Assembly (NCBI GenBank): GCA_045644305.1
Contig: JAZRGS010000031.1
Coordinates: forward strand, 3,722 to 67,721
Direction: 5' to 3'
DNA length: 64,000 nt
Origin: Eubacteriales bacterium
GTDB lineage: Bacteria; Bacillota; Clostridia; Oscillospirales; CAG-382
Position 1 is the first letter of the stretch, and each line of letters begins with the position of its first letter. The position numbers were made by a program, and so were the translations under genes. The notes under the pieces were generated by a model. The model was not told where the DNA came from. It made no database searches and saw only the letters and a list, made by a program, of their open reading frames with translations. Shown one piece after another: positions 1,810 through 43,792 of this stretch.

Positions 1810-2619
1810 TTACTCCAACTCGCCGAGAAGCGCGCCTTCATAGAATTCGAGCGTGCCGTTATCGCAAAGACGAGCGAGGTTGGGGTCGATAGGAAGCTTT
1901 GCAACCTTTTCGATGCCGTGCTCTGCCGCGACAGCGTCGACGTTGCCCTCGCCGTAGATAAAGTGCTTCTTGTTGCAGTCGGGGCACTGGAAGTAGGAAT
2001 AGTTTTCAACGAGACCGAGAATGGGAATGTTCATAAGCTCAGCCATACGTACCGCCTTGCCGACGATCATCGAAACAAGGTCCTGAGGGCTGGTTACGAT
2101 AATCATGCCGTCGACGGGGAGCGACTGGAACACGGTAAGCGGTACGTCGCCGGTTCCCGGAGGCATATCGATATACATAACGTCGTTTTCGCCCCAGTTA
2201 ACGTCGGTCCAGAACTGCTTTACACAGCCTGCGATGACGGGACCGCGCCATGCGACGGGGTCGGATTCGTTGGGGAGCAAGAGGTTGAGCGACATAACCT
2301 TAATGCCGGTCTTGCTTTCGGGGGGGATCATAGCCTCGCCGTCGCTTACAACGCCGCCGTTGACGCCGAATATCTTGGGAATCGAAGGGCCGGTGATGTC
2401 TGCGTCGAGGATCGCGACCTTCTTGCCGCTTCTCTGCGCGTTTATCGCAAGCAACGAGGTGCAAAGCGATTTGCCAACGCCGCCCTTGCCGCTTACAACT
2501 GCGATTACTTTGCCGATCTTGCTTCCGTCACGGAGCTTCTCGATCATGCTTTCCTTGGTTTTTTCTCTACTCGAGCAGTTTGCGCTACAAGTAGAGCAAT
2601 CATGCGTACATTCACTCAT
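1810..2619 (-). CDS. Mrp/NBP35 (ApbC-like) P-loop ATPase, Fe-S cluster carrier
   Basis: Deviant Walker A VSGKGGVGKS, a Cys-rich N-terminus, and a CPDC motif near the C-terminus. Confidence 0.85.
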   Translation of the reverse strand: MSECTHDCSTCSANCSSREKTKESMIEKLRDGSKIGKVIAVVSGKGGVGKSLCTSLLAINAQRSGKKVAILDADITGPSIPKIFGVNGGVVSDGEAMIPPESKTGIKVMSLNLLLPNESDPVAWRGPVIAGCVKQFWTDVNWGENDVMYIDMPPGTGDVPLTVFQSLPVDGMIIVTSPQDLVSMIVGKAVRMAELMNIPILGLVENYSYFQCPDCNKKHFIYGEGNVDAVAAEHGIEKVAKLPIDPNLARLCDNGTLEFYEGALLGELE

Positions 2620-2870
2620 CTTTTTTCACAGTCGCGATAGACCATGCAACAAATTTGTTGACGTCTCTCCGCGAATCCTTTCAATAATTTGTAACCCTCG
2701 ACGGGGTTCTATTATTTGTTACAATTCACTTTATAAGTTCTTTTTCTTCGCCGCGAAGAGTAGAACCATCGTCCACGCGGGGAGAATGCTTTATTTATAG
2801 CCGCCTCTACCGCGGGAACTACTTGGCGGATTATCCGCCCGCGGGAACTACTTGGTGCGTTACGCACCCT
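2620..2870 (-). repeat. Intergenic mosaic repeat, copy A (long variant)
   Basis: Shares ordered modules with 3684-4062, 5281-5805 and 6975-7160. Contains the 27-nt invariant core attatttgttacaattcactttataag and hairpins at 2825-2839 and 2854-2868. Confidence 0.9.
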
Positions 2871-3683
2871 TTACAGGGTTTTCAAGTAGGTTATGCTTAA
2901 TTTTGCACATTCCATGCGAGATTTATTCATCGAGGGATAGTCCTGCTCAACGATAAACCATTCAACGCCGCATTTTTCAGCCTTTTCGATAATCGGCGCG
3001 AAGTTTTGCACGCCGTATCCGACGGGGCGGAACTCAAATTCCTGCTTTACGGTTTCTTTCGGTTTGCTCTCGATGCCGATAAGCTCGTACATATTGTCGC
3101 TCTTTTGACCGACGTAGTCCTTCAAGTGGAGAAGCGGGCAACGGTTTGCGTACTTGTCGAGGTAGTGAATCGGGTCCTGACCCGCAACCGATACCCAGCA
3201 GGTGTCCATTTGCATCTTCAAAAGCTCGGCAGGGGTGGTGTCGTAAAGGTTGTCGAAGCCTGTTTCGCCGCTTTCAAGCAGAACGAAATCGAATTCGTGG
3301 TTGTGGTAGCTCAGCGACATTCCTGCGTCGTGCACAGCTTCGCCGATCTTGACAATCGCGTCGCGTGTCGCCAAGTAGTTTGCGCCGCCGGGACGGTCGT
3401 CTTCGCCGAGCCAAGGAATAACGATGTGCTTGCAACCGACGGTTTTGTATGTGTTGATAACGCCTGCGGTGTCACGGAGCAGGTCGGGAAGCGAAACGTG
3501 TGCCGAAATCGGTGTAAGACCGATTTTTTCGACAAGCGCCTTCATCTCCTCGGGCGTTTTTCCGTAAAGTCCTGCGAACTCGACGCCCTCGTAGCCGTAT
3601 TCCTTAAGCGCCGTTAAGGTCGCTTCAATATCTCTTTCGGCATCGTCTCTTACCGAATATAACTGTATAGCAATAGGTTTCAT
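2871..3683 (-). CDS. Sugar phosphate isomerase/epimerase (xylose-isomerase-like TIM barrel)
   Basis: 270-aa ORF. The pattern IQLYSVRD...GYEGVEF...HNHEFDF is typical of the AP-endonuclease-2/TIM-barrel family. Confidence 0.75.
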   Translation of the reverse strand: MKPIAIQLYSVRDDAERDIEATLTALKEYGYEGVEFAGLYGKTPEEMKALVEKIGLTPISAHVSLPDLLRDTAGVINTYKTVGCKHIVIPWLGEDDRPGGANYLATRDAIVKIGEAVHDAGMSLSYHNHEFDFVLLESGETGFDNLYDTTPAELLKMQMDTCWVSVAGQDPIHYLDKYANRCPLLHLKDYVGQKSDNMYELIGIESKPKETVKQEFEFRPVGYGVQNFAPIIEKAEKCGVEWFIVEQDYPSMNKSRMECAKLSITYLKTL

Positions 3684-4062
3684 TTCTTTTCAATTTCGCG
3701 GGCGCGTGACGCGCCGAGCAGTTTCGCGATGAGCCTTTCAACAAGCTCATAATGCTCTCTCCGCGATACCCTTCAATATTTTGTTGCCCTCGACTCCACG
3801 CGGAGTGAGGTTTTTCTGCTTTGTTAGGGTTTACCGCGGGCTTTACTTGGTGCATTATGCACCCGCGATACCCTTCTATATTTTGTAAGCCTCAATTGGA
3901 TTCTATTATTTGTTACAATTCACTTTATAAGTTCTAACCCCTCGTTACGAAGAGTAGAACCGTCGTCCACGCGGGTGGAAGGCTTTATTTATAGCCGCCT
4001 CTACCGCGGAACTGAAAAGGCGGGTTACCCGCCCGCGGGAACTACTTGGTGCATTATGCACC
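3684..4062 (-). repeat. Intergenic mosaic repeat, copy B (short unit plus long unit)
   Basis: About 83 nt (3688-3770) match 6978-7059 with one mismatch. Hairpins lie at 3701-3715, 3849-3863, 4019-4033 and 4048-4062. Confidence 0.9.
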
Positions 4063-5280
4063 CCATTTGCCGTCGACGAAGATGGGGGTAGCGACGCCGT
4101 CCTTGTAGCCGGTGATGCAGAGGTCGTCGGAGCCGATCATAAAGTCAACGTGGATCATCGAGTCGTTAACGCCGAGCGCGTGAAGCTCGTCAAGGGTCAT
4201 GTTTTCGAATCCCTTAACACAGCCGGTGTAGCCCGAGCCGAGAGCAACGTGGCAGGACGCGTTTTCGTCGAAGAGGGTGTTGTAGTAAAGCAATCCGCTT
4301 GCCGCGATGGGGGAGTCCTTGGGGACGAGCGCAAGCTCGCCGAGCATTCTGCTTCCCTCGTCGGTGGTGATAATCTTACCGAGCGCTTCCTCGCCCTTTT
4401 CGGCGTGCCAAGCAACAGCCTTGCCGTCCTCGAAGTCGATATAGAAGTTTTCGATAAGTGTGCCGCGTGCCGAAAGCGGCATCGCAGAAACGAGTCTGCC
4501 GCTGCATTTGCCCTTCATCGGGGTGGTGAAGATCTCCTCGGTCGGCATATTCGGGTTGTAGAATACACCCTGAAGCGTGTATTCGCCGCCGCCGCACCAA
4601 ACGCTTTCCTTCATAAGCTCGCACTTGAAGTCGGTGCCGTTTTTGGAGGTATAGTGGAGATAATCGAACTGCATTTTGTTGAGCCATTCGCTCTTTTCGC
4701 GGAACGCCTGATTCTTTCTGTCCCAAGCCGCGATAGCGTCGTTGGTTTCGTCGCATTCGACGGTCGCAAGGATTGCCTCCCAAAGCTTTTCAACGGCAAC
4801 GCTTGTGCGTTCGTTGGGGAACACCTTCTTCGCCCACGCCTTGCCGGGGATAGCGCAAACCAGCCACTGGTGCTTGTTGTCCATCGCGTCGCGGTAGGGC
4901 TTGATAAGCTTCGAAGCGGCGATGCTTGCCTTCGCGAGCTTTTCCTGATTAACAGAAGCGAGCCCGTCGGGGTCCTCGCAGATAAGACGGATGCGAGCGG
5001 GGAGAATTTCGGAATCGTGCTTAACGCGCTCGACCTGCCAAGCGGGAACGTCGCAAAGCGAACGGGTGGTGCGGTGTCTGTAAGCAAGCTTGGTGAGCTG
5101 GGTCATCGACCAGTCAACGCGAACGTTGCCCGCGCCTGCACGGTATGCCTCTTCGGCAAGGATTGCGACGAAATCCGCCGCCTCGACGTCAGCGCCGATG
5201 TTCAACTGCTGACCCTTCTGGATGTTTACGCCCTGCTTGATAAGAAGCTTCGCGTATTTTCTCATTACACTTTTCTTCAT
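4054..5280 (-). CDS. M29-family aminopeptidase (AmpS/PepS-like)
   Basis: The N-terminus MKKSVMRKYAKLLIKQGVNIQKGQ and overall length fit aminopeptidase II/T. I prefer the ATG at 5280 over the ORF-track start at 5304, which lies inside the repeat. Confidence 0.8.
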   Translation of the reverse strand: MKKSVMRKYAKLLIKQGVNIQKGQQLNIGADVEAADFVAILAEEAYRAGAGNVRVDWSMTQLTKLAYRHRTTRSLCDVPAWQVERVKHDSEILPARIRLICEDPDGLASVNQEKLAKASIAASKLIKPYRDAMDNKHQWLVCAIPGKAWAKKVFPNERTSVAVEKLWEAILATVECDETNDAIAAWDRKNQAFREKSEWLNKMQFDYLHYTSKNGTDFKCELMKESVWCGGGEYTLQGVFYNPNMPTEEIFTTPMKGKCSGRLVSAMPLSARGTLIENFYIDFEDGKAVAWHAEKGEEALGKIITTDEGSRMLGELALVPKDSPIAASGLLYYNTLFDENASCHVALGSGYTGCVKGFENMTLDELHALGVNDSMIHVDFMIGSDDLCITGYKDGVATPIFVDGKWGA

Positions 5281-5805
5281 TTTTTTAGTTTCGCGATGAG
5301 CCATACAACAAGATTGTTAACTCTTCATCGCGATTCCTTTCTGGTATTTGTTAACCTCGACTCCACGCGGACTGAGGTTTTTCTGCTTTGTTAAGGTTTA
5401 CCGCGGGCTTTACTTGGTGCATTATGCACCCGCGATACCTTTGGCGCGTGACGCGCCGCACAGTTTCGCGATGTGTCGGTCAACAAGCTCATAATGCTCT
5501 CTCCGCGATTCCTTTCTGGTGCTTGTAACCCTCAATTGGGTTCCATTATTTGTTACAATTCACTTTATAAGCTCTAACCCTTCGCCACGAAGAGTAGAAC
5601 CATTATCCACGCGGGTGGAAGGCTGTTTTAAATTTCAAACTTTACCGCGGGAACTGAAAAGGTGTGTTACACACCACGCGGGTATAGCGTTACATTATTT
5701 TGCCGCCTTTATCGCGGGAATTGCTTGGGGCGTCACGCCCCCCCGCGGGAGCTGAAATAAATGCGAGACCTCTGTTGAAAGAAGTCTCGCAAGGCAGCTC
5801 GATAA
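5281..5805 (-). repeat. Intergenic mosaic repeat, copy C (module set present twice)
   Basis: Same modules as copies A, B and D. Hairpins lie at 5416-5430, 5443-5457, 5661-5675 and 5727-5741, and the invariant core at about 5545-5571. Confidence 0.9.
5750..5792 (-). terminator. Intrinsic terminator after yajC
   Basis: On the minus strand, stem gcgagac/gtctcgc (5763-5769 with 5784-5790) is followed by atttatttc. Confidence 0.6.
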
Positions 5806-6183
5806 TTACTTTTTCATTTTCACGTTGCTGTCGACTTTGGAATCCTTGACTTCCTTAACCGCGGGCTCGTTAGCCTTTTCGAGAACCGAGTGGACCGCCC
5901 ACTTCTGGATCTGGATCTTGGTTCTGTTGCCGCTGGTTTCAACGAGAAGCATGTCCTCGGTGATCTTAACGACCATAGCCACGATGCCGCCGGTGGTGCA
6001 GATAACGTCGCCAAGCTCGATCGAATTGCGCATATCCGCGGTTTCCTTTTCCTGCTTCTTCTGAGGACGGTAGATGAAGAAATAGAAGACCAAAACGAGC
6101 GGAACGAGAGTGATGAGAAGCGAAATCGCGCCGCCGCCTGCGGGTGCGGTTTCTTCAAGCATCAAAAGATTTGTAAGATTCAT
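5806..6183 (-). CDS. yajC: Preprotein translocase subunit YajC
   Basis: Single N-terminal TM segment, then YRPQKKQEKE...GDVICTTGGIVAMV, the YajC signature. Confidence 0.85.
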   Translation of the reverse strand: MNLTNLLMLEETAPAGGGAISLLITLVPLVLVFYFFIYRPQKKQEKETADMRNSIELGDVICTTGGIVAMVVKITEDMLLVETSGNRTKIQIQKWAVHSVLEKANEPAVKEVKDSKVDSNVKMKK

Positions 6184-6974
6184 TTTAAGTTACCTTCGCT
6201 GTATTTTATTCTTTTTACGTTTGTGCAATAAAGCGTGCTTTCGTCGATTTCGAAGACCGCGCCGGTAAGCGCGATATTCTTCTTTTCGGGGATGCCCTTC
6301 ATGCGGACGTTCTTTGTAAAGCACGATATCGCGGTGTTGTAGGATACACCGATGATCGAATCTGTGCTTCCGCACATCCCGATGTCGCTGATATAACCGC
6401 TTCCGCGGTCGGTGAGCCGTTCGTCGGCTGTCTGCACGTGGGTGTGCGTGCCGAACACCGCTTGAATCCGTCCGTCGAAGATATGCATGAACGCCTGCTT
6501 TTCGCTGGTTGCCTCGCCGTGGAAATCGCAGATAGCAATGTCGTAATTGCCCTTTTGGCGCTCAAGCAGACGCTCGACCGCGTGGAACGGCGAATCGACC
6601 GGGTCCATAAAGACCTGACCGCAAACCGAAATAACCATCGCGCGAAGCCCGTTTTTTATCGGAACGATGCAATAGCCCTCGCCCGGCGAATCGGGCGGGA
6701 AGTTGAGCGGACGAAGCACCGTCGGCTCGTCCTCGAGCAGGTCGAAAATCGCGTATCTGCGGAAGGAATGGTTGCCGCCCGTGAGGACGTCGGCGCCGCT
6801 TTCAAACAAAATGTCGGCGTCGTATTTCTCCAAACCGCTTCCTTCGTGAGCGTTTTCGGCATTTACGATAACCAAGTCGGCGTTTTCCGCGTTCTTGATC
6901 CTTCGCAAGTTTTTCCGCACAAATTCCAAGCCGGGGGTTCCGAAAACATCTCCCACCGCAAGAATTCTAACCAT
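6180..6974 (-). CDS. ymdB: YmdB-family metallophosphoesterase (2',3'-cyclic-nucleotide phosphodiesterase)
   Basis: MVRILAVGDVFG...GNH...GTHTHVQTADE, and it lies directly downstream of rny as in Bacillus. Confidence 0.85.
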   Translation of the reverse strand: MVRILAVGDVFGTPGLEFVRKNLRRIKNAENADLVIVNAENAHEGSGLEKYDADILFESGADVLTGGNHSFRRYAIFDLLEDEPTVLRPLNFPPDSPGEGYCIVPIKNGLRAMVISVCGQVFMDPVDSPFHAVERLLERQKGNYDIAICDFHGEATSEKQAFMHIFDGRIQAVFGTHTHVQTADERLTDRGSGYISDIGMCGSTDSIIGVSYNTAISCFTKNVRMKGIPEKKNIALTGAVFEIDESTLYCTNVKRIKYSEGNLK

Positions 6975-7160
6975 TTTTTCAATTTCGCGGGCGCGTGACG
7001 CGCCGAACAGTTTCGCGATGAGCCTTTCAACAAGCTCATAATGCTCTCTCCGCGATACCTTTCTGGTATTTGTTAACCTCGACTCACGCGGAGTGAGGTT
7101 TTTCTGCTTTGTTAAGGTTTACCGCGGGAACTACTTGGCGGATTATCCGCCCCGCGATAC
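6975..7160 (-). repeat. Intergenic mosaic repeat, copy D (short variant, no AT-rich core)
   Basis: Near-identical to the first half of copy B. Hairpins lie at 6990-7004 and 7137-7151. Confidence 0.9.
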
Positions 7161-7272
7161 CCTTTCTTTTTTCAAAGTCACGATAAACGAAACAATATGC
7201 TTGTTACCGTTTCGCCGTGAAATTTTATTTAAATACAACTTACCCGAAAAGCGTTCAGAGCAGATGCAGATT

Positions 7273-7326
7273 GGACAAACAGAACCCGAAGCTGTAGTAA
7301 TCTACTGCGAGCGGTTCTGTTTGTTC
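7273..7326 (-). other. Long stem-loop 3' of rny, without a canonical U-tract
   Basis: acaaacagaacc (7275-7286) pairs perfectly with ggttctgtttgt (7313-7324), and the inner part pairs partially. No T-run follows on the minus strand. Confidence 0.4.
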
Positions 7327-7361
7327 AAAACAAAGTATTCTGCGCTGCTATGGACGGTTTT

Positions 7362-8897
7362 CTATTTCGCGTAATCGACCTGACGCATCTCACGAATAAC
7401 GTTTATCTTGATCTGACCGGGATATTCAAGCTCCTCTTCGATCTTGCGAGCGATATCCCTTGCGATAAACACCATTTCGTCGTCGTTCACCTCGTCGGGC
7501 TTGACCATAATGCGAACCTCGCGGCCTGCCTGAATAGCAAAAGACTTTTCAACGCCGGTGAAGGAGGTTGCGATTTCCTCAAGCTTCTGGAGACGCTTGA
7601 TATAGGTTTCGAGATTTTCACGTCTTGCACCGGGGCGTGCAGCAGAAAAAGCGTCTGCCGCCTGAACGATCATAGCGACAAGCGTGTTGGGCTCAACGTC
7701 GCCGTGGTGTGCCTCGATAGCGTGAACGATTTCGCGGCTTTCCTTGTACTTGCGCGCAAGATCGACACCGATCTGTACGTGCGAGCCGTCGATTTCGTGA
7801 GTCATTGCCTTACCGATGTCGTGAAGCAGACCCGCGCGCTTTGCCTGAGCAACGTCAACGCCGAGCTCGGAAGCGATCATGCCTGCGATGTGCGAAACCT
7901 CGATAGAGTGCTTAAGCACGTTCTGACCGTAGCTTGTACGGTATTTAAGACGACCGAGCAGCTTAACAAGCTCGGGATTGATGCCGTGAACACCGGTTTC
8001 GTAGGTAGCCTGCTCGCCTTCCTTCTTGATGACGGCTTCGACTTCCTTGCGGGACTTTTCGACGGTTTCTTCGATTCTCGAGGGGTGGATACGTCCGTCG
8101 GAGATGAGCTTTTCGAGCGTCATTCTCACAACCTCTCTGCGAACAGGGTCGAAGGTCGAAATAGCAATAGCTTCGGGGGTGTCGTCGATGATAAGGTCGA
8201 CGCCGGTGAGGGTTTCGATCGCGCGGATGTTTCTGCCCTCGCGGCCGATGATTCTGCCCTTCATTTCGTCGTTGGGAAGGTCGACGACCGATACGGTAGC
8301 TTCGGCAACACTGTCTGCCGCACAGCGCTGGATAGCGAGTGCGATTATGTTCTTGGCTTCTTCCTCTGCCTTGTCCTTGCATTCCTGCTCGACCTCAAGC
8401 AGCTTCATAGCCATTTCGTGTCTTGCTTCGCTTTCGACACGCTCCATAAGTACGGCGCGTGCGTCCTCCGCGGTCATGCCGGAGATCTTCTGAAGAAGCT
8501 CCTCCTGCTGTGCGACGATTTCTTCAGCCTTAAGCTTCAATGCGTCGTTTTCGCGGATCTTGTTGTTCAAAACCTCTTCCTTCTTTTCGAGGTTTTCATA
8601 CTTTTTGTCGAGATTTTCTTCCTTCTGCATCGCACGTCTTTCCATGCGCTGAAGGTCGTTTCTTCTCTCCTTCAATTCGCGCTCGGTTTCGTTCTTGATC
8701 TTGAGCGCTTCTTCCTTAGCTTCTACAAGCTTTTCCTTTTTTGCCGTTTCAGCGGCCTTTGCAGCATCTTCAAGGATTCTCTTCGCTTCTGCTTCCGCGC
8801 TGCCGATCTTCTTTTCGGCAATCGCCTTGCGGATGAGCATACCAACGATGAGACCTACGACGATACCACCGATGGCGGCGAGTACGTAGTACAACAA
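7362..8897 (-). CDS. rny: Ribonuclease Y
   Basis: N-terminal TM segment, coiled coil, KH domain ([12 protein letters not shown]) and HD domain (HDIGK...HH). Start reassigned to the TTG at 8897, 9 nt after AGGAGG (8907-8912), giving 511 aa. Confidence 0.9.
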
Positions 8898-25946: not shown

Positions 25947-27599
25947 TCAGTCGTCGACCTTTTCACCGATTCTCGCTTCCTTGATGCCGTTGCGGCGGCA
26001 GTATTCCTGAGCAAGAGAGCCTTCGTTACAGTAAACCACGACCTTGTCCTCGCATCCGTCGAACATACCCCAGCCCATGTCCTTGACCGAGTCGGGAATG
26101 ATAACGGTGTCAAGGCTGGTACAGCCTCTGAACGCGCAGTCGTCGATCTTGGTTACGCTATCGGGAATTTCGATTTCGTCGAGAAGCGTACAGTTGCAGA
26201 ACGCACCTTCACCGATTTCGTTAACGCTGTCGGGCATGGTGATTCTGTTAAGCTTCTTACTGTCGCAGAATGCCCAGTCGCTGATAACGGTTACGCTGTC
26301 GGGAATGTCATACTGAACCTCACGGCTGTTCGCGGGGTATGCAATAAGCGTCGATTTGTTCTTGTTGAAAAGAACGTAGTCGTTACCGTCGCGCTTGTTG
26401 GGTTCGGACTTGTAGTGCATATTCTTGGGCTCAACACGAATCGACTTCATGTTTTCACAGCCTCTGAAGGGAGCGTCGGAGATAGAGATAACCGATGCGG
26501 GAATGGTTACGTTGGTAAGCGATTTGCAGTTCTTGAACGCGCTCTTACCGATCTTGCGCAAGCCTGCGGGAAGCTCGATGGAAGCAAGGCTGATGCAGCC
26601 GTTGAACACAAGGTCGTCGATCTTGGTTACGTTCGAGGGAATTACAACCTTTTCAAGACCTACACAGTCGGAGAATGCGTTTTCACCGATAATCGTAAGT
26701 CTTTCGGGGAGCTTGATCGATTTCAAGCTCTTACAGGAGTTAAATACACCGCCGTAGAGCTCGGTAAGTCCGTCGGGAAGGGTTACGTCCTCAAGCGTTG
26801 CGCAGTTTTCAAACGCGCGCTCGCCGATCTTGATAAAATCGTTTTCAACAACAAGCTTGGTCATCGCAACACAGTCGCGATATGCGCTTTCGCCGACTCT
26901 GCCGGTCTTTGCGGGGATGCGCATTTCCTTAAGCTTGTTACAGCCTCTGAATGCCTCCTCCTCGATTTCCTCCAAGGATTCGGGAAGAGTGATGTTCTTC
27001 AATTGGGTTCTCGACTTAAATGCACCCGCACAAATTACGCGCACGCCCTCGTCAACGTCGATAGTTTCGCCGTTGTCCTCACACTTTGTAAGTCTGCCCT
27101 CGTCAAGCGTGAGTCTGTCCATCGCTTCGGCAGGAAGATCGCGCACCATCGACTTGATAAGCTTATCCATGTCGTCGGCGTTGCTGTGGTGGGTGTTGTT
27201 AAGGAGAATTTCAAACGCAGGAGGAACAGCGGTTTCGGAATCGAGGAAGATCGGATAAAGACGCTTGCCGTTTTCGCGTGCGCAGATGATTTCCATACCG
27301 CAGAAAGGCGAATTCATCGATGCATCGGATACGAAAAGCACGACAGCCGAGCAGTTTTCGATTCTCTTGCGAAGCTCATCTCTGAAGTCGTTGCCGTTTT
27401 CGCAGGATTCATCATACCAGATGCGGTACTTTCTGTCGTGCAACGCATCAAGAATGGGATAAACCTGCGCTGTATCTCTGTGAGAATAGGAAATAAACAA
27501 ATAGGGTTCGGTGCCGTTGTATGCCTCGAACTTGGTGAATACCAAAGGAAATTCATCATTTACGGTTTTGGTGGTCTTCTTAACGGTTTGATTTGCCAT
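25947..27599 (-). CDS. Cytoplasmic TIR-domain protein fused to about 12 BspA-type leucine-rich repeats
   Basis: AGGAGG lies 8 nt before the ATG at 27599. TIR motifs: YLFISYSHRD...RIWYDE...VVLFVS..S..SPFCGMEI. These are followed by repeated IP.SV..I...AF..C..L units. No signal peptide. Confidence 0.8.
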   Translation of the reverse strand: MANQTVKKTTKTVNDEFPLVFTKFEAYNGTEPYLFISYSHRDTAQVYPILDALHDRKYRIWYDESCENGNDFRDELRKRIENCSAVVLFVSDASMNSPFCGMEIICARENGKRLYPIFLDSETAVPPAFEILLNNTHHSNADDMDKLIKSMVRDLPAEAMDRLTLDEGRLTKCEDNGETIDVDEGVRVICAGAFKSRTQLKNITLPESLEEIEEEAFRGCNKLKEMRIPAKTGRVGESAYRDCVAMTKLVVENDFIKIGERAFENCATLEDVTLPDGLTELYGGVFNSCKSLKSIKLPERLTIIGENAFSDCVGLEKVVIPSNVTKIDDLVFNGCISLASIELPAGLRKIGKSAFKNCKSLTNVTIPASVISISDAPFRGCENMKSIRVEPKNMHYKSEPNKRDGNDYVLFNKNKSTLIAYPANSREVQYDIPDSVTVISDWAFCDSKKLNRITMPDSVNEIGEGAFCNCTLLDEIEIPDSVTKIDDCAFRGCTSLDTVIIPDSVKDMGWGMFDGCEDKVVVYCNEGSLAQEYCRRNGIKEARIGEKVDD

Positions 27600-27886
27600 T
27601 GCGGTAACCTCCTGAAAATTTATAAGAATGCGCCTTACGCCTTTTATTAATGATACATTATAACACTTTGCCCCTCGGTTGTCAATCAATTATAACCCTT
27701 TTTTGTCATTTTTTGTACATATTAAATACAATTCCCACGCCTTTTGCACCCTTTGTACCCCTTTAACCGCGACACAACCAACGGTAGAGCGTTTTTGCTT
27801 GACTTCAGCCGTCCCAAGTGATAAAATAAAAACAACGAACGACTGCAGGCGTTTGTTGTAAATCAATACGAAAGGAGGGGCAGTAT

Positions 27887-35311: not shown

Positions 35312-35977
35312 TCAGGATATCTTGTCACAATACACCGTCACACGGGTCGCACCGCCGTAGGTGCAGGTAAACAACGTCAGATCAAAAGCACCATCGGTTA
35401 TTTCTTCCACCGCAGTCGGCTCTAAAATATCCTTGGCAACCACCTTATAGCTTGTGGTTACGCCATCCATATCCGTAAAGGAAATACTATCGCCGATATT
35501 CAGCTGCGAAAGCCTTCCGAAATGGCTTTTGTAATTATGTGCCATAAGCACCAAATCTTCTCCGCGAACGCTTCCGTTATAACGGCAAGGCGCAATTTTA
35601 AGCTGAGGATAGCTCCAGTCGCTCATTATCGGCAGCTCCAAATCAAGCGCAGGGATAGACAAATATCCGATATAAGCATAACCGTCGATCTCTATCTCGG
35701 TCATTTTCTTATCCTCTTCGGTCAGCAGGTCCACGGGAATTTGCAGATCTAAATCCAACTCTCCCTCTTTCTCGGGGACGGTCGGCTCCTTGACGGTATT
35801 TTCCCGTATCTGCTCGACAAGCTGCGGAAGCACGTCGGCGGCGGCATTTCCCGCTTCGGCATCCTGATGCATATTGAAAAGCACCAAGAATGACGTGCCT
35901 AACAAAAGTAACGTGCCGAGAATTATGCAAATAACTCCTATTTTACTTTTCACGTTCGCATCTCTTTCTGCCCGCAC
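35312..35977 (-). CDS. Sortase (second sortase of the pilus operon)
   Basis: N-terminal TM segment, LVLMAHN (His), TLFTCT (catalytic Cys) and RVTVYC (Arg). Confidence 0.8.
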   Translation of the reverse strand: MRAERDANVKSKIGVICIILGTLLLLGTSFLVLFNMHQDAEAGNAAADVLPQLVEQIRENTVKEPTVPEKEGELDLDLQIPVDLLTEEDKKMTEIEIDGYAYIGYLSIPALDLELPIMSDWSYPQLKIAPCRYNGSVRGEDLVLMAHNYKSHFGRLSQLNIGDSISFTDMDGVTTSYKVVAKDILEPTAVEEITDGAFDLTLFTCTYGGATRVTVYCDKIS

Positions 35978-36641
35978 ACAAGATCCAACCCACTATCAGC
36001 AAAACCGCACCTGTAATCGCCATTACGGGAACCGGCCAATTAAGCTGACCCGTTTGGGGTATATCGGGAGGTGGAGGTGGTGGCGGCGGTGTTGGAGGCG
36101 TCGGTTCGGTCTCAAAGGGGACCTTGGGATCGGCTTCGACGTCGAACAGATAACGATCGTTTTCCCACTTGGGGATAGAGATCAAGAACGGCGCGATAGC
36201 ATCATAGCCCTCGGATGCGTCCTCGCTGCCCTGCCAAACCAAATACAAGCCTGCATCCAAATCGGCAAAGCGAACCTCGCCATCCTCAATAGGCTTTGAT
36301 AAATATTCGTCAAAAACGCCTTGCGCGCAATCTAATAATTTTTTCACCTGATCAACGTCGTTCAAATTATCCGTGTCAAGCGTCGCGCCCTCAAGGGCAA
36401 GCGCGTCCAAAAGCTTGAAATCGTAGTTCTGTTCCGATACGCGCTCAATTGTCGCCACGTAATACAAATTAAGGTTGCCGTTATCCAAGGGCACGCCCTC
36501 TGCGTCCATGGTAAAGGTCAAGCTTCCCTTTTGGGTCAAATCGGGCAAGGTCGATAGGTCTTCCTCTATCGCGGAGGCGCCGACTGCAAAGACAAATAGC
36601 AGGCTCAATGCCAGAAAAGCAACAAATATTCGTTTGTTCAT
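35943..36641 (-). CDS. Minor (basal-type) pilin with IPQTG sorting signal
   Basis: Signal peptide, Pro-rich PTPPTPPPPPPPPD, then IPQTG, a hydrophobic segment and RKR. Confidence 0.7.
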   Translation of the reverse strand: MNKRIFVAFLALSLLFVFAVGASAIEEDLSTLPDLTQKGSLTFTMDAEGVPLDNGNLNLYYVATIERVSEQNYDFKLLDALALEGATLDTDNLNDVDQVKKLLDCAQGVFDEYLSKPIEDGEVRFADLDAGLYLVWQGSEDASEGYDAIAPFLISIPKWENDRYLFDVEADPKVPFETEPTPPTPPPPPPPPDIPQTGQLNWPVPVMAITGAVLLIVGWILCAGRKRCEREK

Positions 36642-37468
36642 CAGTCGTTCCTCCTTTTTTTGGATTTGGGTATCAGCATAGCGATCAACAGCAAAAGCAA
36701 CATGGGAATAGCCAGCATAGGCGCAACGATAACCGGTCTGATTTGGGTCGCATCGGCGGTTGCGCGAACAACTATCGCCTCTTCCTGATTCTCGACACGG
36801 TGACCGCGAACCAGCAATCGATGCGAATTAACGCCGTAAGGAGTACAGGTGAGAAGAGTGCAAAGATCCTCTCCCTCTACTATTTGAAGCGGGTCCGTCT
36901 CATGAGGCGAAACGATCGAAATTTGATCCACCTCATAGGTAAGCACCTCGTCAAGCACACGAAGGACAAATACGTCGCCCTCTGTCATCTTATCCAAGTC
37001 GGTAAACAATCTGGCGCTCGGAAGTCCGCGGTGACCCGAGATAACGCAATGGGTGCTTTCGCCGCCTATGGGCAGACTCGTCCACTCCAAATGTCCCACG
37101 GTTACCTGCAAAATAGATTCGTTTGTGCCGTGATATATAGGCAGAACAACACCGATCGAGGGTACCTCGATATAGCCCATAATACCAAGACCGCCAATAT
37201 CCAAAACCTGATAATATGCGTTTCTTTGCTCCTCGCTTAGCACATACTTATTGTCTCGCAGGTTCAAGGATCTGTTATATTCCTCCGCCTCGTTCCAAAG
37301 GTGTGCATATTGCTCATCGTCGATTTGTGCCACAGCTTCCACGTAGGAAGCAACGGCACGCGATTGGGTCATGTTGTTCCACCAGTTGGAAACCGTTGGG
37401 TACAGCATTAAGGACAAACCTACGATCAACACCAGCAGCAATATGACGGTTGTACCGCGTTTTTTCAT
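36641..37468 (-). CDS. Class C (pilin-polymerising) sortase
   Basis: ISGHRG...TLLTCTPYG...RLLVRG, plus a C-terminal TM anchor. Confidence 0.85.
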   Translation of the reverse strand: MKKRGTTVILLLVLIVGLSLMLYPTVSNWWNNMTQSRAVASYVEAVAQIDDEQYAHLWNEAEEYNRSLNLRDNKYVLSEEQRNAYYQVLDIGGLGIMGYIEVPSIGVVLPIYHGTNESILQVTVGHLEWTSLPIGGESTHCVISGHRGLPSARLFTDLDKMTEGDVFVLRVLDEVLTYEVDQISIVSPHETDPLQIVEGEDLCTLLTCTPYGVNSHRLLVRGHRVENQEEAIVVRATADATQIRPVIVAPMLAIPMLLLLLIAMLIPKSKKRRND

Positions 37469-37539
37469 AGGTCTCTCCTTAAGACTGTTCCTTGATGGGA
37501 GGGGTTTTAAGCCCCTCCCACGTTAGATATAAAGATCAA

Positions 37540-39114
37540 TTAGTCAGCGTTGGACATACGCTTCTTGGTAACAAGAAGAATAACTGCGCCAACTGCGAGC
37601 AAGCCACCTACGATGTAGAAGATGGTGGTACCGATGCCGCCGGTTTCGGGAAGCTCAATACCGCTCTTGTTGATAACGTCGGTATCGATGATACCGGTAT
37701 CCTTGAACTCGCCGGTAGCAAGGTCGCCGCCGGTAAGGCTGGTAAGCTTAGGATCGTCAGCTTCGATATCGTGCTCTGCGGTGATTTCGAATTCAACTGC
37801 ATCCCATGCATTGTAGCCATCGGGAATAGTGGTTTCAACGAGAACGTAAATGCCGTCGTCGATGCCCTCGAAGCCGAAGGTGTCGCCCTCAGCGTCGGTC
37901 TTAACCTCGCAAGCAACAACGTAATATTTGTCGTCAGCCAATGCGGTTGCCTTTACCTTTTCGCCAAGGGTAGCCTTGATTTCTGCGCCGGTCAAAGCAC
38001 CCTCGGTGTCCGCGAGAACTTCCTTATAAAGGGTAAAGCCTGCGCCGGTAAGCTCGTTGCCTTCAAGAACCTCTTCCTTATACTTGTCAACGTTTACCTT
38101 GTAGGTAAATACGATAACTCTGTCCTTGGGGGTTTCAGAGGTGCCGTCGCCGTAAGGATTGTTCGAGAATTCGATGGTCATTTCGTTGGGGTTGCCGGTT
38201 GCGCCGAACTGCGCGCTTTCATTCAAGGTAGAGGTGTAGTTGAAAACGATCTTGTCGCCTGCTTCAAGGGTGATGCCTGCAGCGGTTGCAGCAGCGATGA
38301 TATCGTCGCACTGGATGTGGAAGGTGCAGCCATTAGCGCAAGCGTTTTCTTCGGTGATTGCGGTGTAAACGAAGTCGTCGGTAAGATCCATTTCTTCGTC
38401 GCCGTTTACGGTAACTACAAGGTCGTTATTGTAGGTAAGACCCTCGCACTGAATATCGTGGATGCCTACGAAATAGGTTTCGTATTCGTCAAAGTCGCCG
38501 GGAAGAACGAAGGTGATCTGGAAAGGAACTTCGTCGCCGATATCGTGGTCGGCAGAATCCTGCCATTCGGTATAATCGTCATCAGTGCTGTCGTTGATGT
38601 CCTTAACCTTCTTTTCGGACCAGGGAAGATCTTCCTTGGTATTTACGGTGATTTCATCCTGACCTGCGGTGTCGAGCATAACGAGAGAGTAGGTGTCCTC
38701 ATCAAAGCCTTCAGCAGAACCAAGCTTGGTTTCAACGATGAGGTAATAGCCCTGATCAACGTCTTCAAACTTGTTGGTGTCGGTTTCGTAATCGGGATCC
38801 ATGTTCTTAACGTTTTCGTAGACAGCGTCTGCGAAAACCTGAGTTGCGTCACCGGTCTGTTCTGCCATGTACGCGATGATTTCTTCATCGGTCGCGCCTT
38901 CGCCAACTACAGCCTGAAGTGCTGCACGGTAGGTTTCGTTTACGGTGTAGATAAATTTGCCGTCGCCGACGTCGGTGGCGCTCAAGAGCTTGTAAGCGCC
39001 GTATTCTGCGCCCTCGATGTCTTTGTCATCAACGATGATGGTTGCGGCAAATGCGGTTGTTGCCATAGCAAGCATAAGAGCAACTGCCATAGCTAATGCG
39101 AATAGTTTTTTCAT
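37540..39114 (-). CDS. Major pilin (backbone fimbrial subunit), LPETG
   Basis: Signal peptide, E-box YVLVETTIPDGY, then LPETGG, a TM segment and KKR. Confidence 0.8.
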   Translation of the reverse strand: MKKLFALAMAVALMLAMATTAFAATIIVDDKDIEGAEYGAYKLLSATDVGDGKFIYTVNETYRAALQAVVGEGATDEEIIAYMAEQTGDATQVFADAVYENVKNMDPDYETDTNKFEDVDQGYYLIVETKLGSAEGFDEDTYSLVMLDTAGQDEITVNTKEDLPWSEKKVKDINDSTDDDYTEWQDSADHDIGDEVPFQITFVLPGDFDEYETYFVGIHDIQCEGLTYNNDLVVTVNGDEEMDLTDDFVYTAITEENACANGCTFHIQCDDIIAAATAAGITLEAGDKIVFNYTSTLNESAQFGATGNPNEMTIEFSNNPYGDGTSETPKDRVIVFTYKVNVDKYKEEVLEGNELTGAGFTLYKEVLADTEGALTGAEIKATLGEKVKATALADDKYYVVACEVKTDAEGDTFGFEGIDDGIYVLVETTIPDGYNAWDAVEFEITAEHDIEADDPKLTSLTGGDLATGEFKDTGIIDTDVINKSGIELPETGGIGTTIFYIVGGLLAVGAVILLVTKKRMSNAD

Positions 39115-39181
39115 GTTTTTTGCTTCCTTTTTATTTTTTTCTTTTTTTCTTTTTTAAACATTGGTAGAAACTTGAATCGAT

Positions 39182-42100
39182 TCAGGAGAATTCGTAATCC
39201 TCCCTTCTGTCGTTCCTTTTATACATCAAGAGAATTGCCGCCGTGAGCACCAACAGCAAGCCTCCAATGGTGTACCAAGCTGTACCCACGCCACCCGTTC
39301 TCGGCAGCTCGTAGGTTGCCTGATTGTAAATGGGGAGCTCGACCTCTTGTCCGTTTTCAAAAATCAGCTCATAAGGAGCGCTGATCAGGGTCACCTGCCC
39401 CGTCTCTGCCTCTACCGTAAACACGATCGGCTCGCTGAGCCCAACGTAGCCGTCCGGCGCGACCCTTTCGAGCAGATAATAGGTTCCGCTGAAAAGATCC
39501 TCGATCCGATAACCGCCGCTTTCGCTTTGTAAGCCCTCCGAGGTCCAGCTGCCGATTAGCGTTCCGAGCTGATCGGTACCGGGAATCGTTATATCTCCGT
39601 TTTCGGAAAGCATATAGAGCTCAAGCTCTGCGCCTGCTAACACCGTGGGTTCGTTGTTAGAGCCTACCGCATACTTAACAAAGCGGAAGGTGATCGCCGC
39701 AGGTAGCTTCGTATTGGTCACGATGTAATGGGCTTCACCCCAGCCGCCGTCGTTTGAGGAACGCTCATAGACGGTAAACCTTGTCGCGCTCGAGGTACTC
39801 GAGGTAGCAGAAGCCGTACCGTTGCTTCCTATGGTTGAAAAATAACGATAGGAATAGTTGCTTCCCGCACGCAGGTAACGGTTGGTATAGGTAATATCGG
39901 TTCCGCTATTAGACGCGGTAAAGGTATACGTGAAACCCGAACGGCTTTGATAGAGATATTTTCCGTTTCCGTTGCGCAGTTTACTGCTCGAATAGGTCCA
40001 AAGCAGTGAATTATCTGCCGCTTGTCCGTTCGCCAACAGCTCGGAAACGTCGGTCCAAGCGAGGCTTGAGCCGTTGACCGTCAACGCCTTATTATCCGAT
40101 ACAAAAAGATACGTGCCGTTGGATTTAAGGCTGTCAACGGGCGTCCAAATGCTATCGGCATCCTCGGGACCTGCCTCGCGCACTGAGGTTTCATAGCCTC
40201 GGATTTTTGCTTCACGAACGGTATATTCAAGCGTTTCGCCAAGCTTGCCGTAAACCGGCAGGTCGTCCCACTTGTAAAACCAATCGTTTGCTTCGCTAAG
40301 CGTTGCTTCGCCAATCTGCACGCCGTTGCAAAGAAGATAAACGGTTACGCTCTCCGTCGGGTCGCCCTCCCACCGTTTTTCTACCGAAACAGAGGTAAGC
40401 GGGCTTTTGGTGTTGGTGATCTGCCAGGTTTCATCATCCAAAAGAATCCCGTCGTCGGTAATATAATAGCCGTCGGGAACCTCAAGCTCCTTAGCCGTGT
40501 AGGTATATCCCTCGGGAAGATCCAACCACATATATTTCCAATTGTTTTCGGCGTTCAGCTCAACGGGATCATTATATGCTTTTCCGTTCTGTAAGAGCTG
40601 TACCAAAATCGATTTCGGTCGGTCGCCTTCGGTATCGCCGACCCACTTTTTGACTACCTCAAAGCCCTTGGGCGTATTTGTAATGGTGAAGTTTCCTTCG
40701 TTCTCTTCCACGCTTGATTCGAAGCCGGGAACCGCCACCTCTTTGATTGTATATTTGCTTCCTTCAGGCAGGTTGTCTACGTAGACGGTAGGCCAAATTT
40801 CCCTGCCGGATTCGTCAATTGTAGGATAAATGGTAATGGGATCGCCGTAAGCGACGCCGTCTTTATACACCTGAACCGTAATGAATTCGGGGTGCTTTAC
40901 GTTACCGTCGTCGTCCCATACCTTGGTGATGGAAATAGATTCGGTATCCGGATCACCGCCGATCTCGATCGCGCCGTTACAGCCGATGCCGCCACCGTCA
41001 ACACCTGCATGATTGCCCGTGATGATAACCGTAGCCAACGGCAAGCCCGCCTGTACGCTTGCGCTGTTATCGGTAAGTGAGTTATCGTAATAATAGCTCG
41101 ATTTGCTCCAAGAATAGGTACCGCCGCCAAGCATCGTGTTACCTACAATAGATACGTCACCCTGCAGGTACATTTCATTACCGTTTTTGCTTGCGGTATT
41201 TCCGTAGATCAAAGTACCGTCCAACACCACGCTGGCGTTAACCGTACCCGACGAGGTAGAGCAGGTTGCGATACCTCCGCCGTAATAGCCCGCCGTGTTA
41301 TCGGTAATCAGCACACGGTGAATCTTGGCATAACCGGGAACGCCTGCATAATTTCCTCTGCTATCGGTCTGCTTGGCATCCAAATAAATAGCGCCGCCGC
41401 TGAATACCGTCCACGATTTACTGCTGTCTCCCGGCTGATACTCTGTACCGTTTGCGGTGTTGTCGGTAAAATAACCTGCCGAGATTTCGGCAGATCTGCC
41501 TGCCGTTATGTTCAGACCGCCACCCGTAGAGGTTGCCAGATTACCAGTAAAGGTACCGCCTGTCATGTTAAAGAACGTGATGTAAGAAGAAATCGCCGAT
41601 CCGTTATTGCGGTTCAACCAACCAAGCGAAACACCGCCGCCCTCACGGGAGGTTTGGTTATAAGAGATGGTACCGCCACTCATATTCATCGTGACGTAGT
41701 CGCCCACGTAAACGCCGCCACCTGCATTTTTATGGTAGCTTTTGTGGCCCGAATTGGGAACCGGTACTATGTCTCTTGCATAGTTGTAGGTTATCGTACC
41801 GCCGCTTAGATTAAAGGTGATCTGATTGGTGTCGGCGCTTTCTATATAAATACCGCCGCCGCACAAAGCCTCGCAATAGCGGATCGTGCCGCCGTCCATC
41901 GTCAGATTACCCTGACAATAAACAGCACCGCCAAGTCCTATATATCCGCTTTCGGTAAACGTCGAGCCGTTACTACTCGTGTTGGGCTTGTTGGAATTGT
42001 ATTCCAATACCGCCCCTTCGCTGATGTAAAGCGACGCACCGCTTTCCACCACGATAATCGGCGCCTTGGCGCTACCGCTTGCATAGGTGGTATTGGTAGC

Positions 42101-43753: not shown

Positions 43754-43792
43754 ATGCCGTCCTCCTTTCTTCAATAATTTACAGAGACGCCA

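Follow-up and report, generated by a model that had tools for sequence, protein, structure and literature searches.

Intergenic repeats built as mosaics of a few short motifs are best known from the BIME and REP elements of Enterobacteria and Pseudomonas, which are extragenic, often lie between co-directional genes of an operon, contain GC-rich palindromic units of 20–40 nt, and are probably transcribed and act as RNA stem-loops (PMC3733652, PMC2817692). REP units end at one side in an unpaired GTAG or CGTC tag (PMC3733652), while BIME units are regularly spaced and alternate in orientation within a cluster (PMC2817692). These elements are linked to RAYT and exceed 100 copies per genome. The REP stabilisers in malEFG are an example of intercistronic stem-loops. 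BOX elements of Streptococcus pneumoniae (boxA-boxB(n)-boxC) consist of three module types of 45–59 nt, are over-represented between convergent genes in more than 100 dispersed copies, vary in the number of internal modules, form extensive predicted stem-loops if co-transcribed, may contain spurious open reading frames (ORFs), and show no clear target-site duplication (PMC3049150). In the STAR elements of Staphylococcus aureus, the 14-bp motif T(G/A/T)TGTTG(G/T)GGCCC(C/A) is repeated with spacers of ~40 bp (PMC3532100). BIME, ERIC, BOX, and Correia elements act via RNA secondary structure when co-transcribed (PMC3049150, PMC3733652), and a single structured element between cistrons, such as that of plastids, can uncouple the stability or translation of neighbouring genes (PMC2230500). 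The repeat family described here fills four gaps of the minus-strand operon rny > ymdB-yajC > M29 peptidase > TIM-barrel isomerase > mrp, at positions 2619–7221 of a 64,000-nt stretch of contig JAZRGS010000031.1 from an Eubacteriales bacterium; this whole stretch is referred to as the window. We tentatively read the family as a lineage-restricted, non-coding mosaic hairpin repeat that has expanded locally and acts in the RNA of a co-transcribed operon, a reading that we hold to be somewhat short of an even chance.

The window family matches no described family, and by analogy it appears comparable in behaviour to the mosaic intergenic repeats BIME, BOX, and STAR. Like BIME/REP, it is an extragenic mosaic of a few short motifs with GC-rich palindromic units, placed between co-directional operon genes, and we infer for it, too, transcription and action as RNA stem-loops. 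It differs in being confined to one 5-kb region with no RAYT seen, and in consisting of CGCG-delimited modules that are unlike each other and run in one direction, whereas BIME/REP units alternate and carry the GTAG/CGTC end tag. With STAR it shares intergenic direct repeats, a short GC-rich anchor (recurring every ~40–50 nt in STAR), repeat numbers that shift between strains, no known transposase, and a function that is unestablished in both (PMC3532100); however, the 14-nt anchor and near-identical tandem spacers of STAR contrast with CGCG plus 2–4 flanking bases and differing, ordered modules here. BOX, compared by architecture only, is likewise a composite and modular element of Firmicutes, but the window family has about seven shorter, CGCG-bounded modules, occupies whole stop-to-start gaps of one operon, and replaces the Shine-Dalgarno sequence. 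Finally, known intercistronic elements are single, gene-specific, and experimentally supported, while the present case is a repeated multi-module family known from sequence. What sets the window family apart is the delimitation of its modules by a 4-nt palindrome, strict module lengths (37 and 106 nt), uniform sense orientation, and the replacement of four whole spacers, including their Shine-Dalgarno sequences.

Self-BLAST of the gaps, named A to D from mrp towards rny, against the window gave matches confined to 2619–7221, all in direct orientation, with identities of 84% (2669–2869 versus 3863–4063), 87% (3687–3896 versus 6976–7184), 84% (3720–3875 versus 5287–5442), and 89% (5443–5533 versus 6990–7080). 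An nhmmer search of the whole 64 kb with four module alignments as profiles found no family member beyond the four gaps; copy counts given for the source genome cover this window, the other ~59 kb of which is without copies. CGCG occurs 25 times per kb in the gaps versus 6.3 per kb in the window (~4x), and 21 CGCG-to-CGCG spacings of 29–37 nt were observed, compared with 3.6 ± 1.8 upon random placement (maximum 12 in 10,000 trials). These spacings are not independent, because the copies are related, and the independent evidence is that five or six distinct module types share the 29–37 nt size.

The first-pass annotation of the window, made from the sequence alone, had proposed such a family in four consecutive gaps and nowhere else in the 64 kb. 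BLAST and the nhmmer profiles agree with it on both points, with similarity far above chance; Pfam returned the genes it had named (ParA/NUBPL-type Mrp, AP_endonuc_2 TIM barrel, Peptidase_M29, YajC, YmdB, and RNase Y). Its gap coordinates needed correction in two places, since gap B ends at 4053 and gap D covers 6975–7361, with the family reaching 7221. The match it reported between 3688–3770 and 6978–7059 stands, although it amounts to 81/83 positions with one mismatch and one 1-nt indel, and not to a single mismatch; the recurrent motif that it pointed out was recovered as 53 nt at 3788–3840, 5355–5407, and 7077–7128, differing by 0–1 substitutions or a 1-nt deletion. The proposed modules of 29–37 nt are indeed CGCG-delimited, but CGCG, described as their beginning, is the module end on the transcribed (minus) strand.

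In the sense reading, about seven module types can be distinguished, 29–37 nt in length plus one of 106 nt, each of which ends in CGCG and most of which carry a stem-loop. H (29–31 nt) is a hairpin GGNGNN-TNA-NNCNCC followed by AAGTAGTTCCCGCG, M5 (28 nt) is a hairpin GGCGCG-TCA-CGCGCC, M2, M3, M4, and M6 measure 35–37 nt, and M7, equivalent to M3 with an insert of ~70 nt, is exactly 106 nt long in 3/3 window copies. The modules are joined head to tail in a fixed order, always along the direction of transcription: H (once or twice), M6 or M2, M7 or M3, M4, M5, an A-rich tail of 11–13 nt, and the ATG. The CGCG-containing shared junctions of 6–8 nt (ATCGCGG, CCCGCGG) are mostly 6-bp palindromes (CCGCGG, TCGCGA). 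Tandem Repeats Finder detected no array in the elements; therefore, successive modules are different sequences and not tandem copies. The full set, H-H-M6-M7-H-M2-M3-M4-M5-tail, is present in gap B, while gap A has the first half with M4 and the tail, gap D a decayed M4 and tail followed by the second half, and gap C both halves with M4-M5 repeated. Identity between the copies is patchwork, with 33 nt at 100% (gaps A and D) and 83 nt at 98% (gaps B and D) lying within regions of ~80–87% overall. The elements span the whole space between the stop codon of one cistron and the start codon of the next: the first hairpin of gap A begins 1 nt past the isomerase stop codon, and that of gap B (4048–4062) overlaps the last M29 codons, its loop TAA being the M29 stop codon. 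The M29 C-terminus reads GKWGA here and GKWAE, GKWA, or GKWADQ in relatives. The features of the operon, in the order of transcription, are as follows.

9098–9070, minus strand: sigma70-like promoter TTTACA-17-TATAAT upstream of rny (promoter scan)
8897, minus strand: TTG start of rny, preceded by AGGAGG, in agreement with homologues
7362–8897, minus strand: rny (RNase Y), operon gene 1, shown for context only; Pfam RNase_Y_N, KH, and HD; 511 aa versus 512–514 aa in relatives
7165–7221, minus strand: gap D, decayed M4 and A-rich tail, CGCG changed to CACG on the 5' side and to CGTG on the 3' side (nhmmer with M4+tail, E = 8e-11)
7123–7152, minus strand: gap D, H, hairpin GGCGGA-TAA-TCCGCC then AAGTAGTTCCCGCG (module split, palindrome scan); 33 nt of this region are identical to 2808–2840
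7051–7122, minus strand: gap D, M2+M3, a joint imperfect hairpin of ~73 nt with A-rich internal loops (module split, folding)
6986–7050, minus strand: gap D, M4 (37 nt, internal hairpin ATGAGC..GCTCAT) then M5 (GGCGCG-TCA-CGCGCC), 81/83 identical to the gap B copy
6975–6985, minus strand: gap D, A-rich tail AAATTGAAAAA adjoining the ymdB ATG (6974), without Shine-Dalgarno (module split, start inspection)
6180–6974, minus strand: ymdB (Pfam YmdB), N-terminus MVRILAVGDVFG in agreement with orthologues
5806–6183, minus strand: yajC (Pfam YajC)
5762–5791, minus strand: gap C, unique terminator-like hairpin after yajC, then TTTATTTCAGCTCCCGCG, in an H-module-tail-like layout
5610–5743, minus strand: gap C distal part, H 5713–5743, M6 variant 5677–5712, H 5646–5676, M6 5610–5645
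5504–5609, minus strand: gap C, M7, 106 nt, the insert with a 14-bp hairpin and a 27-nt core at 5545–5571
5431–5503, minus strand: gap C, internal M4 5467–5503 and M5 with junction 5431–5466
5292–5430, minus strand: gap C proximal part, H 5402–5430, M2 5366–5401, M3 5329–5365, M4 variant 5292–5328
5281–5291, minus strand: gap C, A-rich tail AAACTAAAAAA before the M29 ATG (5280), without Shine-Dalgarno
Start 5280, bounded by gap B at 4053, minus strand: M29 peptidase, 408 aa, the start fixed by homologues of 407–410 aa
3970–4063, minus strand: gap B distal part, H 4034–4063 (loop TAA is the M29 stop), H 4005–4033, M6 3970–4004
3864–3969, minus strand: gap B, M7, 106 nt, invariant core 3905–3931
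3697–3863, minus strand: gap B proximal part, H 3835–3863, M2 3799–3834, M3 3762–3798, M4 3725–3761, M5 3697–3724
3684–3696, minus strand: gap B, A-rich tail AAATTGAAAAGAA before the isomerase ATG (3683), without Shine-Dalgarno
2871–3683, minus strand: isomerase (Pfam AP_endonuc_2 TIM barrel)
2776–2870, minus strand: gap A distal part, H 2840–2870, H 2811–2839, M6 2776–2810
2670–2775, minus strand: gap A, M7, 106 nt, invariant core 2711–2737
2620–2669, minus strand: gap A, M4 2633–2669 (with palindrome CAACAAATTTGTTG) and tail ACTGTGAAAAAAG before the mrp ATG (2619), without Shine-Dalgarno
1810–2619, minus strand: mrp (Pfam NUBPL/ParA-type Mrp)

Just downstream of the rny stop codon (7271–7328), and outside the repeat family, two 27-nt arms (78% complementary) around a 4-nt loop form a long hairpin that has no T-run behind it.

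The closest M29 homologues (<=87% identity) belong to uncultured 'Clostridia bacterium' metagenome-assembled genomes (MAGs), and the loci retrieved for comparison come from ruminant-gut MAGs and metagenome assemblies. The operon order rny-ymdB-yajC-M29-(isomerase)-mrp is conserved in these relatives, and their orthologous gaps measure 12–70 nt overall. The gap lengths in the more distant relatives L013–L016 are listed below.

rny to ymdB: 27 nt
ymdB to yajC: 12 nt
yajC to M29: 68 nt
M29 to isomerase: 19 nt
isomerase to mrp: 24 nt

Every one of these gaps has GGAG, GAGG, or AGGA with normal spacing to the start codon, and GGAGG or AGGAG sites are evident at most other genes of the window. In the window, by comparison, the gaps measure 251–525 nt, and ymdB, M29, the isomerase gene, and mrp are preceded by CGCG and the A-rich tail, without a Shine-Dalgarno sequence, as can be seen from the sequences before their start codons.

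ymdB: cgcgaaattgaaaaaATG
M29: cgcgaaactaaaaaaATG
isomerase: cgcgaaattgaaaagaaATG
mrp: cgcgactgtgaaaaaagATG

The N-termini of the encoded proteins agree with those of orthologues, and the start codons are therefore correct. Comparison of the window with the short, Shine-Dalgarno-bearing orthologous gaps shows that the expansion is the derived state, in which the ancestral spacers have been replaced and not simply interrupted. An oddity was observed at one ymdB start, in the relative L007 (4757–4821): ahead of the conserved KILAVGDVFG N-terminus there is no ATG, GTG, or TTG in frame, and the protein is called from a later start, with 249 aa. A frameshift or an assembly error could explain this, as could an unusual start beside the CGCG/A-rich tail.

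The 15-nt perfect palindrome GGNGNNTNANNCNCC (GGNGNN-TNA-NNCNCC) of H and M5 occurs 12 times in the window, in the gaps only, compared with 0.01 in shuffled sequences. Together with one occurrence in L006, the locus of a second genome considered below, this makes 13 copies with seven stem variants. All 42/42 cells are Watson-Crick and 3/6 pairs have changed on both sides; the observed covariation score was reached by 0/500 shuffles, and sliding the pairing partner abolished pairing. Full complementarity at variable positions is unneeded for a double-stranded-DNA protein site, and therefore an intra-strand hairpin, of RNA or single-stranded DNA, is maintained. In the long hairpin of ~73 nt that M2 and M3 form jointly, one pair of the closing stem has undergone a compensatory change from U-A to C-G. 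Variation in the 14-bp hairpin of M7 is limited to U-A to U-G, and this hairpin contains fixed G-U pairs as well; since G-U pairs would be A-C mismatches on the other strand, this pattern favours sense (minus-strand) RNA along the gene direction, and it is the only strand-specific evidence. For M4, the alignment of 13 copies predicts pairing between the flanking CGCG motifs. The decayed M4 of gap D (7165–7221), 73–74% identical to 2619–2675, retains this flank pairing, the altered CACG...CGTG being still complementary; as the two changes are also plain CpG transitions, the compensation is weak as structural support. Covariation support thus exists, resting on few independent sequences. The compensatory stem changes, and folding z-scores of about -5.5 on either strand, are in line with the structured element suggested initially.

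A scan for the 24-nt core of M7 among GTDB species representatives, one genome per species, returned a single locus, L006 (JAFXDO010000043.1), in Clostridia bacterium RGIG6318 from sheep rectum. Absence elsewhere had been named as a ground for dismissing the family; this locus shows it in another genome, where its context differs. Along the gene direction, the L006 gyrB-gyrA gap contains M7, H, M2, and M3, then 77 nt of unrelated sequence, and finally M4 and the tail; the module order is that of the window. This copy is 77–83% identical to the window copies, which are 81–90% identical among themselves. L006 and window copy A share the 35-nt sequence GAACTTATAAAGTGAATTGTAACAAATAATAGAAC without a difference, one or two flanking positions deviate in each of copies B and C, and the 27-nt CTTATAAAGTGAATTGTAACAAATAAT is exact in all four copies (three in the window and L006). 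This M7 core, found at 2711–2737, 3905–3931, and 5545–5571, includes the 9-bp palindrome TTGTAACAA. In L018, GyrA is 92% identical to that of L006, but the gyrB-gyrA gap of 210 nt barely aligns with the L006 gap; the element is therefore better conserved than ordinary intergenic DNA. As judged from these alignments, the conservation between L006 and the window seems to point to constraint or recent transfer.

The module M4 is exactly 37 nt long in 13/13 exact-pattern matches from five non-redundant genomes, at 57–80% identity. It lies upstream of M29 in L009, L010, and L011, where the M29 protein is identical but the number and arrangement of modules differ. It was found upstream of the isomerase gene in L001, by pattern search, and in L008, read by eye, L001 having three copies of a ~40-nt unit ending in CGCG and L008 one. 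A 36-nt form, also read by eye, precedes ymdB in L007, and gyrA of L018 starts with CCGCGGGAAAAGAAAAAAATG. With M4 copies as query, nhmmer gave E = 1e-6 to 1e-4 for L009–L011, while L001 and L008 were not significant, and homology of their units to M4 is plausible from position and length. The sites of M4 with the A-rich tail in relatives, all oriented along transcription as are the elements in all window gaps and L006, are given below.

L001: 2912–2965
L006: 1300–1352
L007: 4721–4774
L008: 2680–2728
L009: 185–337
L010: 3–113
L011: 22–80
L018: 4975–5003

These comparisons suggest that M4 with its tail is an older leader module of wider occurrence, and that the elaborated mosaic, of narrower range, belongs to RGIG6318 and the window organism. 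Searches elsewhere were negative: two DNA patterns had no match in JGI metagenomes, three DNA patterns gave none in IMG/VR or one chance match in a coding region of a GC-rich phage contig (L017), the full element had no BLAST match in plasmid and phage collections, and the six-frame translation of the concatenated elements had no scoring match in a database of 5.8 billion proteins, i.e., no mis-called ORFs were found.

Several further observations concern the relatives. Short contigs with the same M29 protein (L009–L012) end inside or beside CGCG modules, which suggests that CGCG repeats break metagenome assemblies. A second, unrelated intergenic repeat, containing CCCCACAAAACAAGTTTTGCGGGGACCCC and ...CTCGCGAAC.TC.AAGGTATA..., is located at 4451–4631 in L004, 4296–4520 and about 7600–7720 in L007, and 2399–2698 in L009, so that intergenic repeats seem common in this clade. 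The M29-to-mrp gap of L005 (7231–7449), a relative without the isomerase gene, carries two copies of a different ~60-nt hairpin unit, …CTTTGCCTT.GTTAT.GTTAC.AAAGGCAGGGAGACC…. Gut-1 RNA (RF01706) scored above the gathering threshold in L001 (5837–5911) and L018 (8443–8519), with 67 and 66 bits, each accompanied by a weaker second match on the opposite strand; none was found in the window.

The described families were considered in turn. The REP/BIME-like character proposed in the first-pass annotation holds as an analogy, H and M5 being GC-rich palindromic units in the 20–40 bp range, but not as membership. GTAG follows the stem at 2 nt on the 3' side (AAGTAGTT) in only 4/10 H modules, the others having GTAA, GCAA, GCAG, or TTTTCAG and M5 none, so that the tag is inconsistent and off the stem end; all modules are direct in the four gaps and L006, without alternating orientation, and neither a high copy number nor a nearby RAYT was seen in the 64 kb. 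A MITE, which would carry terminal inverted repeats of 15–30 bp, was rejected, since the inverted-repeat search found only internal hairpins and palindrome-to-palindrome matches, with no terminal pair bracketing a unit, and no target-site duplication flanks the elements, the empty orthologous gaps showing spacer replacement and no clean insertion. The annotation had likewise reported no terminal inverted repeats, target-site duplications, or transposase, and Pfam scans of ~48 ORFs of the 64-kb window revealed no transposase (including Y1), integrase, or cas genes. A CRISPR array, in which nearly identical direct repeats of 24–48 bp alternate with unique spacers of about the same length, mostly beside cas genes, is not present, as only CGCG and a few flanking bases are constant, the 'spacers' recur in the same order elsewhere, and neither an array nor cas domains were detected. 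The STAR motif is absent from the gaps, a single 2-mismatch match elsewhere in the window being no more than chance would give. The type III antitoxin RNA (ToxI-like), whose nearly identical tandem repeats of 34–40 nt directly precede a ToxN/AbiQ-type endoribonuclease gene, was also discarded, given that the modules are not identical tandem copies and that the downstream genes encode YmdB, the M29 peptidase, the TIM-barrel isomerase, and Mrp. Rfam covariance models identified three tRNAs only in the whole window, with two sub-threshold chance matches at E<=5 in 2400–7500, and nothing overlapping the element in L006, L009, L001, L007, and L018; this Rfam check left nothing at the gathering threshold on the elements, consistent with the initial impression that no described family matches.

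A coding reading was rejected as well, because the ORFs in the gaps differ between copies in frame, start, and length, as the annotation had noted in calling the family non-coding. One upstream ORF with a good Shine-Dalgarno sequence (GGAGAGAG-N4-ATG; MSLLKGSSRNC...) starts inside M4 in gap B (3761–3625), the distal part of gap C (5492–5391), and gap D (7039–6863), all on the minus strand, and crosses the main start codon out of frame; neither gap A nor the proximal M4 of gap C has it, and it is therefore probably spurious. On the plus strand, ORFs of more than 400 aa run antisense to mrp (1408–2640) and M29 (4150–5394), extend into the repeat gaps, and could be mis-annotated. Among possible signals within the elements, internal sense promoters were dismissed, since matches to sigma70-type sites were weak and the only strong one is that upstream of rny (9098–9070); intrinsic terminators were rejected, a T-run following only 2/10 H hairpins; and clustering of CsrA-type GGA was at chance level, judged by eye.

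The patchwork identity, the gain and loss of whole modules in near-identical strains, and the shared junctions suggest slippage, recombination, and gene conversion at CGCG. The family thus probably grew in place, by duplication, gain, and loss of whole modules and by gene conversion between copies, with the CGCG-containing junctions (ATCGCGG, CCCGCGG) as recombination or slippage points, a mode that would explain the discrete module lengths; a transposase acting nearby is an unlikely source of the spread. The elements would be co-transcribed with the operon as a stack of stem-loops punctuating the polycistronic mRNA. Such stem-loops could shield the 3' end of the upstream cistron and provide the downstream cistron with a structured leader, which would end in an unpaired A-rich stretch without a Shine-Dalgarno sequence, translation starting from there. 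A role in mRNA is favoured over one in DNA because the conserved operon has a single good promoter, the elements are in sense orientation, the G-U pairs are on the sense strand, and the elements end at start codons.

Several points weigh against this reading. Co-transcription, action at the RNA level, altered stability or processing of the mRNA, and the way in which the family spread are all points that we infer. The H palindromes are perfect, with zero G-U pairs, and such stems fit a DNA-level hairpin, or neutral template-switch correction of quasi-palindromes, equally well. The folding z-scores of gap B, -5.5 and -5.7, are alike for both strands, as is expected of palindrome-rich DNA, and are uninformative as to strand. 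At each of three pairs of the predicted M7 hairpin AACCC..GGGTT, one copy (B or L006) has lost the pairing, and the exactly conserved AT-rich M7 core is unexplained by a simple stem-loop role. M4 keeps its YAAC..GTTG sequence while its hairpins are built differently in gaps B and D, which argues for recognition of sequence over structure in this module. The predicted accessibility of the start regions is unremarkable, and the occurrence of the full family in only two genomes makes for a small independent sample.

If the stems were perfected by replication itself, the family could be a neutral or selfish local repeat, in which template switching corrected quasi-palindromes, while slippage and recombination at CGCG inflated gaps that are merely tolerated. 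Perfect H palindromes without G-U are exactly what correction on the replication template would yield, and the gain or loss of whole modules between close strains, the decay of a gap D copy by CpG transitions, and the confinement of the family to one 5-kb region of the window, together with its rarity in public data, fit as well. We nevertheless regard this explanation as unlikely: the 35-nt core is identical in L006 and copy A (27 nt in all four) at 77–83% identity overall, whereas the ordinary intergenic DNA of closer relatives is unalignable; the 37 nt of M4 and the 106 nt of M7 are kept exactly; and, with their Shine-Dalgarno sequences gone, four housekeeping genes (ymdB and mrp among them) need the element's 3' end for initiation. 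Alternatively, the functional unit could be M4 with its tail (CGCG, GRGAG, YAAC-N6-GTTG, CATCGCG, an A-rich stretch, and ATG), a cis-regulatory leader or operator recognised by a clade-specific RNA- or DNA-binding regulator or by the ribosome, and serving a small regulon that includes the rny operon genes and gyrA, with the mosaic as its elaboration. The shared regulatory leader proposed at the outset finds some support here, as in six genomes M4 with its tail immediately precedes the start codons of various genes, although other readings rival it. M4 is exactly 37 nt long and 10–19 nt upstream of the ymdB, M29, isomerase, and mrp starts (farther for gyrA) in these six genomes; L018 gyrA also opens with CCGCGGGAAAAGAAAAAAATG; YAAC..GTTG and CATCGCG are kept even where the hairpin differs; and the module begins with the Shine-Dalgarno-like GGGAGG or GGAGAG, while the true start has no Shine-Dalgarno sequence and orthologues lacking the module use ordinary ones. 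On the other hand, the elements lack a linked candidate regulator, no function common to the genes served is obvious, M4 of L006 lies ~170 nt from gyrA instead of adjoining its start, and further M4 copies are internal, far from start codons, in gap C, L009, and L010. Its copy number varies among strains with an identical M29 protein, which is unusual for an operator, the similarity of M4 in L001/L008 is not significant by nhmmer, and no covariation is seen within M4 except at the CGCG ends, so that we consider an operator of this kind rather unlikely. A related and still more doubtful proposal is that M4 with its tail is an undescribed, clade-specific leader for translation initiation or regulation that replaces the Shine-Dalgarno sequence of ymdB, M29, the isomerase gene, mrp, and gyrA and places them under common control; initiation could then be Shine-Dalgarno-independent or use a dedicated factor, and the hairpin chain could be a modular platform copied from gene to gene.

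Two further explanations, both improbable in our view, involve mobility and double-stranded DNA. The different context in the second genome (the gyrB-gyrA gap), the absence of the element from closely related gaps (L018, L013–L016), the GC-rich hairpins at both ends of the full unit (H at 5', M5 at 3'), and GTAG 2 nt from several H stems are features to be expected of a non-autonomous element of MITE, PATE, or REP type that an IS200/IS605-type Y1 enzyme or RAYT, acting on subterminal hairpins, would mobilise in trans, and single-strand Y1 transposition would likewise leave no terminal inverted repeats or target-site duplications. However, the 64 kb contain no transposase, the copies are partial and mosaic instead of unit-length, the window copies all sit in neighbouring gaps of a single operon and are absent from the remaining 59 kb, only 4/10 H modules carry GTAG and do so away from the stem end, the original spacers with their Shine-Dalgarno sequences were replaced and not interrupted, and the phage, plasmid, and IMG/VR collections gave no match. 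The elements might instead be an array of sites for a nucleoid or topology protein, with CGCG every 36–37 bp (~3.5 helical turns), or hold an antisense promoter in the AT-rich core. BIMEs bind IHF and gyrase. The roles of BIMEs are summarised in PMC3733652 and PMC2817692. The regular 36–37 bp spacing and the mostly 6-bp palindromic CGCG junctions (CCGCGG, TCGCGA) would suit an array, and an extended -10-like sequence, TGTTACAAT, lies in the invariant core on the strand antisense to the operon (plus strand), the scan giving TCGACG-16-TACAAT with an upstream TG at 2698–2725. Yet strict complementarity at variable stem positions is unneeded for a site bound as double-stranded DNA, the M7 G-U pattern favours sense RNA, the -35 region is poor and not conserved, and promoter-like sites number 8 versus 5.1 ± 2.4 in shuffles, with no clear excess.

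Elsewhere in the window, two defence-type proteins are encoded on the minus strand at 25947–27689 and 47470–49308, one with a TIR domain and BspA-type leucine-rich repeats and the other of the AIPR (abortive-infection) family. A sortase-dependent pilus or adhesin cluster (35312–43774, minus strand) comprises two sortases and a 1530-aa protein with Cna_B, SpaA, and CHAP domains, and is followed by a signal peptidase at 43793–44389.

If the favoured reading of a non-coding hairpin mosaic acting in operon RNA is true, this family from uncultured ruminant-gut Clostridia would join the small set of mosaic intergenic repeats represented by BIME, BOX, and STAR, with two unusual traits, namely fixed-length modules delimited by a 4-nt palindrome and the full replacement of intercistronic spacers in an operon headed by the RNase Y gene. 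Its importance would be moderate, given the very few genomes so far and a class of elements whose existence is unsurprising. In practical terms, such repeats break metagenome assemblies and can be mis-called as ORFs. For the biology of the organism, the locus may serve as a natural test case of how repeats colonise operons without killing downstream expression, and of how genes without Shine-Dalgarno sequences are translated in a Firmicute that otherwise uses strong sites.

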